DNA of 9,612 nucleotides from a virus (taxonomy: Duplodnaviria; Heunggongvirae; Uroviricota; Caudoviricetes), in IMG/VR virus record IMGVR_UViG_2636416140_000002. One strand, given 5' to 3'. The notes below the pieces were generated by a model. That model made no database searches and was not told the origin of the DNA. It saw only the letters and a list, made by a program, of their open reading frames with translations. Position numbers and translations under genes: made by a program. Below are positions 4,027 through 9,612 of this stretch, piece by piece. How positions within the stretch are numbered: position 1 is the first letter of the stretch; each line of letters begins with the position of its first letter.

Positions 4027-5238
4027 ATGTGGCCTTTCAGAAGAAAAAAAGAGCAGCGCAGCATGACGCTTGATGAGTTTATGGCGCTGGCTGGCACATC
4101 GAACACGGGGGCGGGTGAGTACGTATCATCGGGGACAGCGGAATCACTGCCCGCCGTCATGAACGCCGTCACGGTCATCTCTGAGGCGGTGGCTACCATG
4201 CCGTGTTACCTGTACCTGGTACGCAATGAGAAGGGGAAGGAGGCCCGAGAGTGGCTTGATTCTCATCCGGTCGATCACATCCTCAACGAGCGCCCGAACG
4301 CGTGGCAGACTCCCTACCAGTTTAAGCGAATGATGATCCGCCACTGCCTGTTAAACGGTAATGCTTATGCGGTGATTCAGTGGGGGCGTGATGGTTTTCC
4401 GGTGGCTTTACATCCTTACCCGCCGCAGTCGGTGAACGTGGAGCAGACAGGCGAACACAACTGGCGCTACTGCATCACTGACGCCTACACCGGAAACACC
4501 CGCAACTATTTACCGTGGGAGGTTCTCCACCTTCGTTACTCCACGGATGACGGTTTTATGGGGCGCTCACCTGTAACCATCTGCCGCGAATCGCTGGGGC
4601 TTGGGCTGGCCCAACAACGCCACGGCGCGAGCGTGATGCGTGATGGCATGATGGCGGCAGGGGTTATCACGTCAGGCGAATGGCTGGACGGCGTGAAGGG
4701 CAAACAGGCATTAGCCGCACTGGAACGCTACAAAGGGGCCAGAAACGCCGGAAAAACGCCCATCCTTGAAGGGGGTATGAGCTATCAGCAGCTGGGCATG
4801 AGTAATCAGGATGCTGAATGGCTGGCCTCCCGTCGCTTCACCATTGAAGACATCGCCCGAATGTTCAACGTCTCGCCGATTTTTTTGCAGGAATACAGCA
4901 ACAGCACCTACAGCAATTTCAGCGAGGCAAGCCGCGCATTTCTCACCATGACGATGCGCCCGTGGCTGGCGAACTTTGAGCAGCAGATAAAAAACGCCCT
5001 GCTGGTGGCCTCGCCTGTACCTGGTATCCGGTATCAGGTGGAGTTTGACAGCGCGGACCTGTTACGGGCCACACCAGGCGAACGCTTTGCCACCTATGAA
5101 CGCGGCATCAAATCCGGCGTTATGTGCCCGAACGAAGCCCGCGAACGTGAAGGGCTGTCCCCGCGTGATGGTGGTGATGAGTTCAGCCAGGCATGGAAAC
5201 AGGAAGTAAAAATCAGCGAGGGAGAAAAACCGGAATGA
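4027..5238 (+). CDS. Phage portal protein, HK97 family
   Basis: 403 aa. Start is 1 nt after the protease stop, with a GGGGG SD. Central and C-terminal regions look like HK97-type portals; acidic C-terminal tail. Alternative start ATG 4063. Confidence 0.92.
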   Translation: MWPFRRKKEQRSMTLDEFMALAGTSNTGAGEYVSSGTAESLPAVMNAVTVISEAVATMPCYLYLVRNEKGKEAREWLDSHPVDHILNERPNAWQTPYQFKRMMIRHCLLNGNAYAVIQWGRDGFPVALHPYPPQSVNVEQTGEHNWRYCITDAYTGNTRNYLPWEVLHLRYSTDDGFMGRSPVTICRESLGLGLAQQRHGASVMRDGMMAAGVITSGEWLDGVKGKQALAALERYKGARNAGKTPILEGGMSYQQLGMSNQDAEWLASRRFTIEDIARMFNVSPIFLQEYSNSTYSNFSEASRAFLTMTMRPWLANFEQQIKNALLVASPVPGIRYQVEFDSADLLRATPGERFATYERGIKSGVMCPNEAREREGLSPRDGGDEFSQAWKQEVKISEGEKPE

Positions 5239-5573
5239 ACATAGGGCGACTGCGTGACAGGGTAACGATTCAGACCCTGAAACAGACCAGGGATATAACC
5301 GGCGAAATACTCGAAACGTGGGAGGACGGTCACACACTCTGGGCAAGCGTGAACATGATCAGCAGCAAGGAGGCCATTTCATCGGGTGCAGAGCTGGCGA
5401 TTGGTACCGTAAGGATCTGGATACGGTACCGGAAGGACATCAACGCCACCAGCCGGATAAAGGTCAGTACGGGGCCGCTGGCGGGGCGTGTACTGAATAT
5501 CATCGGGCAGCCGCTGCCGGATGCCGCCAGGACACGCCTTGAAATTCTTTGTCGTGAGGGCGCGGAAAAATGA
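5235..5573 (+). CDS. Head-tail adaptor / head-closure protein (head-tail joining family)
   Basis: ATG 5235 overlaps the portal stop (ATGA). 112 aa with a pattern typical of phage head-tail joining proteins (RDRVTIQ..., ...WASV..., ...RIWIRYR...). ORF track's longer start at 5193 is less likely. Confidence 0.75.
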   Translation: MNIGRLRDRVTIQTLKQTRDITGEILETWEDGHTLWASVNMISSKEAISSGAELAIGTVRIWIRYRKDINATSRIKVSTGPLAGRVLNIIGQPLPDAARTRLEILCREGAEK

Positions 5574-5866
5574 CAGAAGAACTTATCACCCTGGAAGAAG
5601 TGAAACTCCATTGCCGCATCGATGGCGACGAGGAAGACCAGTTAATCAGCGGATACATTGCCGCATCGCTTGAGGCGTGCCAGATACATATAGGCAGGCG
5701 CTTTGATGACGGGCTGGAGTTCACGCCAGCCATAAAGATTGGCTGCATGATGTTTATCGCTCACCTGTACGAGAATCGCCAGCTGGTAGCGGATAACGCA
5801 AAAACGCGCGTACCCATGACGATTGGCGCGCTCTGGACGGCTTACCGTGATGTGGGGGTGTACTGA
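5570..5866 (+). CDS. gp6-like head-tail connector protein
   Basis: ATGA overlap with the upstream gene. N-terminus ITLEEVKLHCRIDGDEEDQLISGYIAASLEACQ is characteristic of gp6-like connector / DNA-packaging proteins. Confidence 0.82.
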   Translation: MTEELITLEEVKLHCRIDGDEEDQLISGYIAASLEACQIHIGRRFDDGLEFTPAIKIGCMMFIAHLYENRQLVADNAKTRVPMTIGALWTAYRDVGVY

Positions 5867-6306: not shown

Positions 6307-6472
6307 GCGGGAACAAAACCGCCTTATCCGTGGACTGATAAGGCAGCGTGACGCATGGAAGACACAGGAAACAGGGCATAAAGATAAAGCGTCAGGACGC
6401 GCAGAACGCATCACAGCGAAGCGATTAACCGACCGTGGCCGCGAGGTTATGGAATGTTTCCGCAATCGCTGA
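6299..6472 (+). CDS. Hypothetical small ORF (57 aa) in the HNH-terS interval; may instead be a displaced fragment of the terS 5' region
   Basis: ATG 6299 overlaps the HNH 3' end; weak SD. Sequence ...SGRAERITAKRLTDRGRE loosely resembles Arg/Lys-rich N-termini of small terminases. Low confidence. Confidence 0.3.
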   Translation: MNEREQNRLIRGLIRQRDAWKTQETGHKDKASGRAERITAKRLTDRGREVMECFRNR

Positions 6473-6542
6473 TGAGGCTGTATGACGGGGTGGGGGGCGT
6501 TTTCAGGACAAACCCGACCCCGCCTACCTGGATGACATCGCC

Positions 6543-6854
6543 GTGAAGCAGTGGCGGGAAAAATCGCGGCAGCTTGCGGAACGGGGAGACCTGACCCCCG
6601 CCGACTGGAGCAATCTGGAACTGTATTGTGTCAACTACTCCATTTACCGGAAAGCCGTCGCAGACCTTGCGGCGCGCGGGTTCAGCATTGTTAACAGTCA
6701 GGGCGGCGAGAGCAGAAACCCCGCATTAAGCGCGAAATCAGACGCTGAAAGGGTGATGATAAAAATGGCCTCCTTGCTCGGTTTTGACCCGATAAGCCGC
6801 CGTAAAAACCCACCGGAAACAGAAGAAGAGGACGAGCTTGACCGCCTGGAATAA
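6543..6854 (+). CDS. terS: Terminase small subunit, P27/HK97-gp1-like family; annotated in-frame part only, N-terminus appears frame-disrupted
   Basis: Conserved-looking core DLTPADWSNLELYCVNYSIYRKAV. The family motif appears to begin upstream of the first in-frame start (GTG 6543) as ...KPDPAYLDDIA in the same frame, which is closed by a stop at 6483-6485. A good SD plus ATG at 6454 is in the +1 frame. Confidence 0.8.
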   Translation: MKQWREKSRQLAERGDLTPADWSNLELYCVNYSIYRKAVADLAARGFSIVNSQGGESRNPALSAKSDAERVMIKMASLLGFDPISRRKNPPETEEEDELDRLE

Positions 6855-8499
6855 GTACGCAGAAGACGTAAAAACGGGCAAAATTCCGGCCTGTAAACGG
6901 CTGAAACAGGCCGTTAAACGGTACTTTTCGGACCTTAAAAGCCCCCTTTACACGTTCGATCGTGAGGTTGTGGAGCGGTTTATTGCCTTTTCCAGGGTGT
7001 GCCCGCACGTAAAAGGACCGATGCGTGGCAGACCCATTGAGCTGGAGCCGTGGCAGCAGTTCGCCTTTGCGTGCATCCTCGGCTTTAAGGTTAAGGCCAC
7101 CGGACGGCGCAAATACACGAGCGCCTTTATCGAAGTGCCGCGCAAAAATGCGAAATCCACGACCGCCGCGATTCTGGCTAACTGGTTTCTGATTATGGAG
7201 AACGGTCAGCAGGATATCTACACCGCAGCGGTGAGCCGTGACCAGGCGCGGATCGTCTTTGATGATGCGCGTCAGATGTGCCTTTTATCCCGACCGTTAC
7301 GCAGGCGGGTGAATATTCAGGCGCATAAGGTGATACACCCGAAAAGCAACAGCCTGTTAAAGCCGCTGGCAGCAAAAGCGGCAACCATCGAGGGAACAAA
7401 CCCAAGCCTTTCCATCGTGGACGAATACCACTTGCACCCCGATAACGGCGTTTATTCCGCGCTTGAGCTGGGGATGGGCGCACGTCCCGAAGGGCTGTTA
7501 TTTGCCATTACCACATCAGGCAGCAACGTCGTTTCAGCCTGTAAACAGCACTATGATTATTGCTGCCAGATCCTGGACGGCGAAGAGGTTAACGATTCAA
7601 TTTTTGTACTGATTTACGAACTGGACGACGAAAACGAGGTTGATGATCCGGCGATGTGGATAAAGGCGAACCCTAATATTGATGTTTCCGTCGATCGTGA
7701 AAAACTGGCCTCAACCATCCAGAAAGCGCGGGGTATTCCGTCGCAGTGGGTGGAGATGATGACAAAGCGATTTAATATCTGGTGCCAGGGGGCTACCCCG
7801 TGGATGGGTAACGGCGCATGGGCTGAGTGTGCCGGAACGTTCACGGAGGAAGATTTACACGGCCAGGAGTGTTACGCGGGGCTGGACTTATCATCAACCA
7901 GCGATATTTCCAGCGTGTGCTATGCCTTTCCGGTCGGTAAAACCATTATGCTGGTTTCCCGTCACTATCTGCCGGAATTTCAGCTACAGAACCCCGCCAA
8001 TAAAAACCGCGCCATCTATCGTCAGTGGGCTAAAGCAGGCTGGATACGCACAACGCCTGGCGACTGCATTGATTACGACCGGATCAGAGATGACATCATG
8101 CAGGACGCGGAGAAATTTAATATCAGGCTGGTGGGCTTTGATACGTGGAACGCCACGCATCTCAGAACGCAATTACAGGGGGCAGGTTTTGAGGTGGAGC
8201 CGTTCCCGCAAACCTACCTCAGATTCAGTCCGGCGGCGAAATCGTTCGAAGTTTTTGTTAACCGCAGGGTGATTGTGCATCGTGGCGATCCGGTGTTGTC
8301 CTGGTCGATGAGTAACGTCGTGATGCAGAGTGACGCGAACGCCAATATCAAGCCGAACAAGAAAAAATCACCGAACAAGATAGACCCGAGCGTGGCGGCG
8401 CTGATGGCGTTTGGTACATTCCAGGCAGAGCATGAGGATTTTGCTTTTGATATAAGCGACAGCCACCGCCAGAAACTGGAAGAATTTAGCGGGGTGTAA
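6838..8499 (+). CDS. terL: Terminase large subunit (ATPase and nuclease)
   Basis: 553 aa. TTG start with GAGGA SD 5 nt upstream, overlapping the terS 3' end. N-terminus AWNKYAEDVKTGKIPACKRLKQAV and ATPase region are typical of large terminases; acidic residues in the C-terminal nuclease part. Confidence 0.93.
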   Translation: MTAWNKYAEDVKTGKIPACKRLKQAVKRYFSDLKSPLYTFDREVVERFIAFSRVCPHVKGPMRGRPIELEPWQQFAFACILGFKVKATGRRKYTSAFIEVPRKNAKSTTAAILANWFLIMENGQQDIYTAAVSRDQARIVFDDARQMCLLSRPLRRRVNIQAHKVIHPKSNSLLKPLAAKAATIEGTNPSLSIVDEYHLHPDNGVYSALELGMGARPEGLLFAITTSGSNVVSACKQHYDYCCQILDGEEVNDSIFVLIYELDDENEVDDPAMWIKANPNIDVSVDREKLASTIQKARGIPSQWVEMMTKRFNIWCQGATPWMGNGAWAECAGTFTEEDLHGQECYAGLDLSSTSDISSVCYAFPVGKTIMLVSRHYLPEFQLQNPANKNRAIYRQWAKAGWIRTTPGDCIDYDRIRDDIMQDAEKFNIRLVGFDTWNATHLRTQLQGAGFEVEPFPQTYLRFSPAAKSFEVFVNRRVIVHRGDPVLSWSMSNVVMQSDANANIKPNKKKSPNKIDPSVAALMAFGTFQAEHEDFAFDISDSHRQKLEEFSGV

Positions 8500-8512
8500 T
8501 GAGGTCAGCAGC

Positions 8513-8794
8513 ATGACAGAAGCCGAAATAACGGGATTAATCCGCCGCGTTGCCGGAATCAGCCAGCAGGCTGACGAACAGGCCACGCAGCCGGACAGCG
8601 TGACAGCCGAAAACTATGCGCGTGTTGTTGCTGAGGTGATGCGCCGTGATGGTATAGAACTTAATGGCGTGGATATGCGCAACATACGAACCAGAGTTCT
8701 TGAGTTGCTGGCCTACCGTCGCCGCGTGGAGATGTATCGGGAGAAGGAGAAAATAACGTACCACTGGAAGAAGCCGGAGCGGTTGCGGCGGTAA
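8513..8794 (+). CDS. Hypothetical protein (93 aa), last gene of the packaging operon
   Basis: Good SD (GAGGT) 7 nt upstream, tight spacing after terL, reasonable codon usage. Charged, likely helical; no family recognised. Confidence 0.6.
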   Translation: MTEAEITGLIRRVAGISQQADEQATQPDSVTAENYARVVAEVMRRDGIELNGVDMRNIRTRVLELLAYRRRVEMYREKEKITYHWKKPERLRR

Positions 8795-9048
8795 CTGGTT
8801 GATATTCCCGACGGCCCAAAAATGGGTTGGCTACACCCCTCACAACTACGACATTTTCGCAGTTTAATTAATGGTCAGCTTAATCGCTAACCCGCTGATA
8901 TTTTCGGAAACCTCAATTTGAGGAAGTCGGCGCGGTAACTCGCTGAACTTTAAGCAAAGCGCAAAATTGCGCTTGCTGAATAATCATTATGATTACGCAG
9001 ATGATTAAGGAATGACCGAAGGCGGAAATTCGCCTGTGGTTAATGGGG

Positions 9049-9068
9049 GAGTTGCAGATCTGCAACTC
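9049..9068. promoter_or_regulatory. Perfect 20-bp palindrome GAGTTGCAGATCTGCAACTC (contains GATC)
   Basis: Reverse complement is identical to the sequence; lies in non-coding DNA downstream of the packaging genes. Confidence 0.6.
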
Positions 9069-9117
9069 GACCATGAAACTACGGAAACTACCCGTAGTTT
9101 GGGTAGTAAGAGTAACA

Positions 9118-9157
9118 CCCAGATTTTGGGGCTTACTCGTGATACCCAAATTTGGGG
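9118..9157. repeat. Two near-identical palindromic units CCCAGATTTTGGGG (9118-9131) and CCCAAATTTGGGG (9145-9157) in direct orientation
   Basis: Read directly; each unit is itself dyad-symmetric (CCCAAATTTGGG is a perfect palindrome). Confidence 0.55.
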
Positions 9158-9301
9158 TATCAGTGGCAACCATAACGACTTTCGTTACGGTTGATGCTTT
9201 TACCCCATTGGGGGAAAGGTATTACGATAATCATAACACCTACCGAACAGGTAAAGCCCACCAGCCTGATTAACGTTTAACCGGAAAAAAATTCCGGTAG
9301 G

Positions 9302-9313
9302 TGGGGATCCCCA
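9302..9313. promoter_or_regulatory. Perfect 12-bp palindrome TGGGGATCCCCA (contains GATC)
   Basis: Read directly; immediately downstream of hairpin CCGGAA-AAAAA-TTCCGG (9281-9297). Confidence 0.5.
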
Positions 9314-9381
9314 TATCGACATTAACGCCCCTCATGAATTGGTGTGCTTCCCCCTGGAAAGATGATCCGCCTGTATATTTC

Positions 9382-9407
9382 TTGTGTCTATTTGTTCCAC
9401 GTTGTTT
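9382..9407 (+). promoter_or_regulatory. Second copy of the 10-bp-phased TTGTKY triplet, including the exact 15-mer TTGTTCCACGTTGTT (9392-9406) shared with 2025-2039
   Basis: Hexamers at 9382 (TTGTGT), 9392 (TTGTTC) and 9402 (TTGTTT). Confidence 0.45.
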
Positions 9408-9424
9408 CATACAGTGCACCGAAC

Positions 9425-9446
9425 GGTGTAGTCACTGGTGTAGTCA
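9425..9446 (+). repeat. Direct repeat GGTGTAGTCA x2 (period 12 bp), preceded by dyad CACCG-AA-CGGTG
   Basis: Copies at 9425-9434 and 9437-9446; candidate arm-type or regulator binding sites. Confidence 0.4.
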
Positions 9447-9492
9447 TTTTGCGATTTTTGGCACTTTTTGCGGTGTTAATTATTTAATTAAA

Positions 9493-9612
9493 TCAATGTG
9501 TTATGCGAAATAAGTTATATATAACAGCAATAAATAATGCGAGAATAAACGGCACGATGATCTCGGCGGCAAAACGGATACCGCAGAGAATAATGACCAG
9601 CATTCCCAACAT
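9493..9612 (-). CDS. 3' end of a minus-strand ORF encoding a hydrophobic (membrane) segment; ATG sits exactly at the window edge, so it is either a complete 39-aa small membrane protein or the C-terminus of a longer flanking gene
   Basis: Reverse-strand translation [39 protein letters not shown], stop at 9493-9495. GC-rich third positions in the first 20 codons suggest real coding. Not in the ORF track because it is under 60 aa within the window. Confidence 0.4.

Follow-up and report, generated by a model that had tools for sequence, protein, structure and literature searches.

What is the palindrome-dense, gene-free DNA at the right end of the virus record IMGVR_UViG_2636416140_000002, and on what level does it act? 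An initial annotation of this stretch of 9,612 nucleotides, hereafter the window, flagged positions 8940-9320 as non-coding and crowded with dyads, and proposed either a highly structured RNA or an array of protein-binding sites, such as an attachment-site arm that would place the right boundary of a mobile element there. The window is part of an Escherichia coli capsid-forming phage-inducible chromosomal island (cf-PICI) inserted in tqsA; it begins where the primase gene ends and runs up to the right junction of the element. The flagged stretch is tentatively regarded here as a 3' accessory hotspot of this island that carries no cargo, composed of portable, satellite-specific modules with a role at the DNA level resembling that of the BIME-1/RIP repeats.

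The identity of the element was established by comparison with complete E. coli genomes. The final 813 bases of the window were matched over at least 80% of their length in 195 of these genomes; in nearly all others, which have an empty site, the match starts only at position 9521, inside tqsA. A three-way comparison of attL, attR and the empty K-12-type attB defined an att identity block, ATAACAGCA, at this point. At the corresponding locus of strain FORC_069, the left part of the element encodes an integrase, a small AlpA-like helix-turn-helix regulator, an Icd-like protein, DUF4222, a primase, SSB and PerC, and the right part encodes the major capsid protein, prohead protease, portal, head closure, connector, HNH, TerS (P27 family) and TerL. 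These are followed by a hypothetical protein of 93 amino acids (orf93) and the truncated tqsA. The gene order equals that described for the cf-PICI EcCIEDL933 (bioRxiv 10.1101/2022.09.08.507074). Between the stop codon of orf93 (8794) and the junction lie 725 bases with zero annotated genes.

All seven dyads listed in the initial annotation were recovered: the perfect palindromes of 20 bp at 9049-9068 (GAGTTGCAGATCTGCAACTC) and 12 bp at 9302-9313 (TGGGGATCCCCA), the inverted repeat AAACTAC-CC-GTAGTTT (9085-9100), TAATCAT-T-ATGATTA (8981-8995), CCGGAA-A5-TTCCGG (9281-9297), a bulged hairpin (8953-8977), and a pair of similar near-palindromes about 27 bp apart (9118-9157). Their density is far above chance, as assessed by folding energy against shuffled sequences. 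The minimum free energy of 8795-9330 gave z-scores of -9.1 (plus strand) and -10.0 (minus strand), and none of 100 dinucleotide shuffles folded as well. In sliding windows of 150 nt, z-scores of -3.7 to -7.9 were confined to 8851-9300; over the whole window the mean was -0.63 (standard deviation 1.6), with no value below -3.3 outside that interval. The structured stretch runs from about 8792, at the orf93 stop, to about 9321, and hence begins some 150 bp left of the flagged start. The small open reading frames (ORFs) in this region had been judged non-coding, and this holds: relatives differ there by indels of 1, 2, 5, 8, 15 and 39 nt.

In order to resolve the organisation of this DNA, the sequences downstream of orf93 homologues were aligned for about 40 distinct elements from E. 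coli genomes, one plasmid-like record and IMG/VR contigs. Tandem units start at the orf93 stop codon, each consisting of a head, a short G+C-rich hairpin with an A/T centre, and a tail that resembles the 3' end of orf93 (..GGCGCGG). The head reads TAAC-NNNY-TGAT-W, and its reverse complement, WATCAR-NNNN-TTR, is the consensus of the integration host factor (IHF). Three units occur in the window, at 8792, 8888 and 8936, the first two with perfect consensus heads; the second belongs to family D1 of the repeat scan. Relatives carry between 1 and 7 units, and the orientation of the array relative to orf93 is constant across elements.

The stems of the units vary (GCCCA, GCGCA, ACGCA, GTGCA, CCTCA, TTCGCC, CAGCC, TTCCACA and others), with pairing and offset kept. 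A perfect hairpin of at least 5 bp follows 28 of the 50 distinct consensus heads, against 3.5 ± 1.9 in shuffles; these 28 hairpins comprise 16 different stems and start 4-10 nt after the head, mostly 8-10. This variation with preserved pairing shows selection for dyad symmetry, be it at the DNA or the RNA level. The exact IHF consensus is present in 25 of 37 distinct units, and the variable positions of the head coincide with the N positions of that consensus. In a census covering 1.43 Mb of fetched loci, the 32 kb lying downstream of orf93 homologues yielded 60 head-plus-hairpin units. The remaining 2.83 Mb yielded 19, several of which were the core-proximal att IHF site or units beside an orf93 remnant. 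The window itself has four IHF consensus matches where 0.61 are expected, three of them within 8792-9503. The earlier suggestion of IHF sites therefore stands for the spacer at 8792-9503, where they are over-represented; the flagged interval 8940-9320 contains no exact match.

To the right of and between the units, the flagged region is a mosaic of portable non-coding modules, designated A, B, X, C and D1-D3 (Table 1). Between elements with differing flanks, modules C and D retain 83-97% identity. The four dyads of module C follow in the order 20-bp palindrome, AAACTAC/GTAGTTT repeats, 29-nt dyad and GATACCC-N-GGGTATC; at the base of the last (P4) a T-A to C-G replacement constitutes a compensatory change. 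Module C was found at 92-95% identity in 706 of 5426 E. coli genomes. Its carriers include cf-PICIs, a classical lambda-dependent PICI with rpp and cosN (L002), helper-embedded PICIs (L003, L025) and a circular element (L006), and it is absent from the EcCIEDL933-like element of O157:H7 (L007) and from L005, L009 and L010. In many elements it directly follows the first unit; in the window it lies inside the right flank. Where it is absent, modules B and D1-D3 are contiguous. In relatives the homologue of module B reads GGTCATAATGACC...GACCATCAAGG, with arm changes that preserve the dyad, and hairpin X takes a longer form (ACCGAGGGCGGAATTCCGCCTTCGGT) placed after module C instead of before it. 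L003 and L006 have no modules D, and for every module there are apparently complete PICIs that do without it.

Table 1. Features of the right end of the window, from the last gene of the packaging operon to the attR junction
Feature	Position	Strand	Description
orf93	8513-8794	+	Last gene after terL; 93-aa helical protein; repeat array starts at its stop codon
Unit 1	8792-8831		Head TAACTGGTTGATA overlaps the TAA stop; reverse complement TATCAACCAGTTA is a perfect IHF consensus
Unit 1 hairpin	within 8792-8831		GGCCCA-AAAA-TGGGTT, after the head
Module A	8840-8887		Dyad AACTAC-GACATTTTC-GCAGTT; left hotspot flank; independent in other PICIs; cargo to its right in L223
Unit 2	8888-8935		Head TAACCCGCTGATA, perfect IHF consensus on the minus strand; hairpin CCTCA-ATT-TGAGG; tail GTCGGCGCGG
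Unit 3	8936-8980		Degenerate head TAACTCGCTGAAC; bulged hairpin 8953-8977
Module B	8976-9011		Dyad TAATCAT-T-ATGATTA plus a second ATGATTA; start of the right hotspot flank; immediately right of the L223 cargo
Hairpin X	9020-9035		AGGCG-GAAATT-CGCCT
Module C	9044-9164		Four-dyad cassette of about 120 bp: P1 9049-9068, P2 9078-9107, P3 9109-9137, P4 9140-9162
Modules D1-D3	9165-9321		Dyad block; hairpins 9168-9194, 9198-9219, 9281-9297; conserved beside different att sites
Chi in modules D	9258-9265	-
GATC-centred palindrome in modules D	9302-9313		Extends to 22 bp in relatives
attP arm block (P-arm side)	9384-9448	+	About 70 bp; ends with the doubled arm-type motif GGTGTAGTCAnnGGTGTAGTCA, 9425-9446
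Core-proximal IHF site (predicted)	9491-9503	+	Exact consensus AATCAATGTGTTA; between motif and core; same place in related loci
att identity block (attR junction)	9521-9529		ATAACAGCA; 5' coding sequence of tqsA follows, on the minus strand

In 1557 of the 5426 E. coli genomes the modules occur independently, and they are common to cf-PICIs, classical Rpp/cos lambda-dependent PICIs and helper-embedded PICIs. The spacer gave zero matches in a distant-mode search of 50,697 deposited phage records. In the collections searched, the repeat modules were confined to satellites of this kind. One of the carriers of module C, L006 (NZ_CP148328.1), is a 10,790-bp circle deposited as a non-mobilizable plasmid. 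It contains int, alpA, a primase gene, a protease-capsid fusion, an orf93 homologue, module C and both att arm motifs, without D1-D3, and looks like the excised circular form of a classical PICI.

The occurrence of cargo genes in relatives indicates what position these modules occupy. In L223, a Q-family antiterminator gene separates module A from module B, and L003 and L011 have an Abi gene with module C plus hairpin X on one side and the att arm on the other. According to one published account, PICIs carry immune genes or systems at their 5' or 3' ends (PMC11364771), and another describes the flanks of the cf-PICI packaging operon as variable (bioRxiv 10.1101/2025.02.11.637232). Because the cargo of L223, L003 and L011 sits among the same modules, and because end-located PICI cargo has been reported, the window is interpreted as showing such a 3' hotspot devoid of cargo. 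The location between packaging module and attR resembles that of the PICI 3' accessory/immune hotspots and of the P4-like satellite hotspot (PMC11364771; Rousset et al. 2022, cited there), and the likeness extends to the Abi or Q-family cargo that relatives hold exactly between these modules. Unlike those hotspots, which in the portions available are defined by their cargo and whose non-coding flanks are not described there, the one in the window is gene-free. As judged from these sequence comparisons, the PICI right end shows itself to be no random spacer, conserved repeat modules bracketing the site of anti-phage cargo. Two intervals of L223 (NZ_AP042695.1, 3494680-3505556), a PICI-like element, are of note, 1902-2318 and 5204-5596: besides a ProQ/FinO-family gene by ssb, the element has the Q-family gene of its 3' hotspot, with these same units and B/D modules on either side.

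For this tqsA-integrating cf-PICI, the analysis also settles where the att junction and the arm sites truly lie. Comparison with empty chromosomal sites, a check suggested by the initial annotation for locating attR, put the flagged interval 200-580 bp to the left of the junction; the actual arm of the attachment site is at 9384-9529, about 100-200 bp right of the palindrome-dense stretch. The doubled GGTGTAGTCA motif at 9425-9446 recurs in the same orientation beside int at attL, just upstream of that gene. Four copies of GGTGTAGT occur in the whole element, two per arm and nowhere else, and the distance of the doubled motifs from the core centre is 89 bp on the upstream side and 143 bp on the downstream side. 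The features that an attP arm should have, namely these arm motifs and the IHF consensus at 9491-9503, lie to the right of the flagged interval. Since arm features and junction follow just right of the interval, the guess that a boundary was near proved correct, as did the recognition of non-coding DNA in a mobile element; the junction itself (9521-9529) falls outside the interval. The whole block of about 70 bp (TTGTTCCA, GTTGTTTCA, GTGCA.C and the doubled motif) is directly duplicated on both att arms (9384-9448 and 1725-1796 of L012). In helper-embedded PICIs, a doubled arm motif flanks the attP centre at a distance of about 81 bp on the upstream side and about 132 bp on the downstream side (PMC10111431). 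The present element has the same layout with another motif, GGTGTAGTCA. Unlike the flagged dyads, it is 9384-9529 to which that layout corresponds, and the portion of the account available makes no mention of the flagged modules in connection with the attachment site.

The non-coding spacer of about 725 bp that separates orf93, with which the packaging operon ends, from the attP arm consists of a left flank formed by the units together with module A, in which each IHF-consensus head is followed 8-10 nt on by a G+C-rich hairpin with a unit-specific stem, and a right flank formed by the conserved dyad block of modules B and D1-D3, into which module C of about 120 bp is inserted here. In the reading tentatively favoured, by analogy with the BIME-1/RIP repeats, which bind IHF where E. 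coli operons have their 3' ends, this region may act as DNA: bends induced by IHF would alternate with short palindromes capable of cruciform extrusion, marking and insulating the end of the unidirectional PICI operon, and the conserved heads and flanks may provide short homologies through which PICIs swap cargo genes and modules. IHF occupancy, the insulating or boundary role and the role in cargo exchange are what we infer from the observed arrangement. A DNA-level role is favoured because stem mismatches show no strand bias (22 G.T versus 21 A.C), because the D hairpins are invariant and because the head is conserved in the manner of a DNA-binding consensus.

The BIME-1/RIB/RIP elements of E. 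coli, reportedly described by Boccard and Prentki and by Oppenheim and colleagues in 1993, are said to combine an IHF-binding L motif with flanking REP palindromic units at the 3' ends of transcription units. The spacer is similar to BIME-1/RIP in having, 3' of a transcription unit, an alternation of IHF consensus sites and short G+C-rich palindromes, and in that tandem repeats of variable number stand just after the last gene of an operon. It differs in that its units have no REP/PU consensus, are confined to PICI right ends rather than dispersed over the chromosome, and have heads in a single orientation and unit-specific stems rather than one consensus. Because the REP consensus is absent, the resemblance is taken to concern the way of working and not family membership; the region would represent IHF-plus-palindrome repeats of operon ends in a new form. 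The units are also reminiscent of lambda nut sites, in which a linear conserved head is followed 8-10 nt later by a hairpin of 5-6 bp with an A-rich loop and variable stems. However, their loops are not GNRA-like pentaloops, they stand at the end and not at the start of the operon, and no N-like gene was seen. A lambda-type nut site was rejected because the boxA consensus (YGCTCTTWA) has zero matches in the window.

Several observations weigh against the proposed DNA-level role. IHF binding is predicted from a consensus of low information content, and the units are paralogous copies, so that their counts are not independent. The spacing from head to head ranges from 42 to 137 bp (most commonly 48), and being variable it implies that the units are not helically phased. 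The REP (PU) consensus that defines BIMEs is absent from the window when up to 3 mismatches are allowed. The array begins exactly at a stop codon and in the sense orientation, which suits a 3' structure of the mRNA equally well. Unit number (1-7), module C and modules D are dispensable in some PICIs, which fits non-essential or neutral DNA. Finally, it is only the mosaic pattern that suggests a role in cargo exchange. A stronger version of this role, in which the units and the B/D flank would form a dedicated satellite-specific junction where IHF-bent, cruciform-prone repeats direct recombination and shuffle cassettes without an integron, is decidedly unlikely. If true, it would let defence or regulatory genes move among otherwise unrelated cf-, lambda-dependent and helper-embedded PICIs.

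The structured RNA of the initial annotation could take the form of a sense hairpin array in the 3' untranslated region (UTR) of the late/packaging operon, serving as stabiliser, processing site or terminator, or of a separate non-coding RNA. Although rather unlikely, its 3'-UTR form remains a serious rival to the DNA-level reading: the units set in at the orf93 stop, in an orientation relative to that gene that never changes, the stems differ with pairing kept (16 stems among paralogous units), some variants are compatible with G.U pairs on the plus strand (GGCCCA/TGGGTT; AAATTAC in P2), and the folding z-scores are very low. Tests directed at an RNA gave no positive support. No Rfam family was matched at E <= 1 by either strand of 8400-9612 (Rfam 15), no sense-strand promoter was detected, the hairpins are without U-tracts, and the single terminator-like match, against 1.5 expected, is at chance level. 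Wobble-type mismatches are strand-symmetric, the conserved D block, with hairpins that do not vary, gave a covariation term of +0.85 and only one compensatory pair, and the pattern of head conservation fits a DNA-binding consensus. It is unlikely, too, that the region is functionless debris, that is, recombination scars at the 3' end of orf93 together with the remnant of a lost cargo gene, the minus-strand hydrophobic ORF running through D2, D1 and B. The junction of unit tail and head (GTCGGCGCGG|TAAC) does resemble the end of orf93 (GCGGCGG|TAAC), as duplicated gene ends would, and unit number ranges widely (1 to 7). The open minus-strand frame of L002, L005 and L009 encodes ...GGLYIPLITVMMIQ...APTVTMFVVVALMVCVVIMTIQ..., and the window has on this strand a promoter-like site (9390-9362) and a Shine-Dalgarno (SD) sequence with ATG at 9322. 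Debris would hardly account for internal unit hairpins that are still perfect, with 16 stems pairing at similar offsets, or for the identity of modules C and D in spite of differing flanks; moreover, the hydrophobic frame lacks a conserved start, and non-triplet indels interrupt it in most elements.

An extended attP P-arm, in which the dyads would be distal integrase, AlpA/Xis and IHF sites of a very long arm, is quite unlikely. The long P arm of lambda lies on the attP side away from int, and so does the flagged region, which moreover belongs to a spacer enriched in IHF consensus sites; the D3 palindrome keeps a fairly constant distance (96-122 bp) to the left of the doubled arm motif in PICIs with four arm motifs. 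Arms of tyrosine-integrase attP sites were taken to lie within roughly 150-250 bp of the crossover core, and by this measure the flagged interval, at 200-580 bp from the core, does not qualify, the recognisable arm block (9384-9503) ending by -140. The dyad half-sites AAACTAC, GTTGCAG, GATACCC and GGGGATCCCC are absent from attL and do not recur elsewhere in the element. Among the PICIs compared, the modules adjoin tqsA, clpS-side, phoQ-side and prophage-gene att sites with four different arm motifs and vary independently of both site and motif; L006 is without D1-D3, L003 without D and L007 without C, and in L003 and L223 cargo genes part the units and module C from attR. It is very improbable that module C serves a DNA-binding protein, whether from the satellite or from a helper phage, as operator or decoy and thereby in sensing or regulation. 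With four strong dyads within 120 bp and 92-95% identity across PICI types, it would suit such a role, and the pattern GTTGCARATYTGCAACTC (18 bp of P1) also occurs inside KilA-N-type genes, in the codons of the peptide ELQICNS, at 87 IMG/VR prophage loci (central C or T; e.g. L094, L093, L084, L036 and L054), some of whose lineages have strongly diverged flanks. The P1 palindrome could be a common protein-binding site linking satellite and helper. But that search was selected on the pattern, so the match may be chance amplified by an abundant gene family, and a further KilA-N sample gave identical copies only. The half-sites of module C have no other copies in the element, including near its promoters, and the EcCIEDL933-like element does without the module; for EcCIEDL933 itself, mobilisation has been shown by experiment (10.1101/2022.09.08.507074). 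Dense dyads and IHF sites are typical of packaging sites and replication origins, yet a cos or pac site or an origin is hardly credible. The lambda cosN GGGCGGCGACCT is absent from the window with up to 2 mismatches allowed, and the two cosN of the classical relative L002 are both upstream of orf93, flanking rpp, the arrangement given for classical PICIs in PMC9026076. For a cf-PICI, the virion-derived sequence LR881103 has its start 22 bp ahead of terS and its end 37 bp past the small ORF behind HNH, ends that are possibly conventional. The modules are common to satellites with different terminases and different primases. The PICI origin, as presented in PMC6092414, consists of two sets of iterons around an AT-rich stretch immediately 3' of pri; the flagged region is about 8 kb from pri, and the repeat scan revealed no iteron family beyond the units.

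PICIs, including the capsid-forming ones that cross species, are described almost wholly by their genes, and in the available parts of the literature the non-coding DNA of their right end was not found dissected. Those parts, on PICIs, cf-PICIs, helper-embedded PICIs and PICI cos sites, cover cos, ori, the att motif and cargo, and no description of the present modules was found in them. If IHF-binding units do organise or insulate the operon end or guide exchange, they would help to explain how very different satellites share accessory genes, and the modules would also serve as a sequence signature of PICI right ends and empty hotspots.

The minus strand of the spacer contains an ORF of 40 amino acids (9322 to 9200) preceded by an SD-like GAGGGG and a sigma-70-like promoter site at 9390-9362, of which neither start nor frame is kept in relatives. 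In L002, L005 and L009 a longer frame is open on this strand and includes hydrophobic segments (...LITVMMIQ...MFVVVALMVCVVIMTIQ...); it may be a decayed cargo gene for a small membrane protein. A type I toxin-antitoxin locus was considered and rejected: the hydrophobic frame is open in some relatives only, with no conserved start and with non-triplet indels, and no Rfam antitoxin was found.

Homologues of orf93 stand before the same non-coding modules in about 40 distinct PICIs. The protein matches phrog_1561 (E 3e-56) and has no relatives in Pfam, NCBIfam or PDB; its AF2 model is all-helical with a pLDDT of 60, too poor for a fold search. Among the best 120 homologues listed, only near-identical E. 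coli proteins were found, and a single-protein scan of the genome collection returned one close locus. Assignment of orf93 as RgdR was rejected, since RgdR has 99 aa and an RGD motif and, by size alone, fits the annotated DUF4222 gene.

Upstream, the window lacks 97 bp that are present in FORC_069 (L001 11619-11715) between CCCCGCC direct repeats, the site in the window being at about 6517 (6472-6543). The missing segment holds the start codon of terS and the greater part of the G+C-rich gap separating terS from the HNH gene, where the cos of the cf-PICI probably lies. The sampled complete genomes all align there as two pieces over about 298 bp, and therefore all have the 97 bp; the copy in the window may be unable to package owing to this deletion. 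The ends of L004 (LR881103.1, 'Escherichia phage vB_KppS-Ant', 16.5 kb, from an induced prophage) fall in the same gap. This record has the cf-PICI genes (int, primase, capsid, protease, portal, connector, HNH, TerS and TerL) and no tail genes bar a doubtful 'tape measure'. In the classical L002, the two lambda cosN are convergent (7863-7874 on the plus strand and 8602-8613 on the minus strand), the second just upstream of the orf93 homologue, and flank a gene of 144 aa, presumably rpp, that starts about 100 bp after the first.

Chi sites (GCTGGTGG) occur 12 times in the whole window, where shuffles predict 0.32, for example at 324, 1039, 1301, 3869, 3997, 5001 and 8127 on the plus strand and at 1327, 1635, 3502, 5446 and 9258 on the minus strand. 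As this enrichment spans the whole element, beyond the dyad region, Chi was rejected as an explanation of that region. In many classical PICIs a Chi site stands directly left of module C, and one of those in the window falls within the conserved module D2. These sites may shield the replicating or packaged satellite, in which no Gam-like function is provided, from RecBCD.

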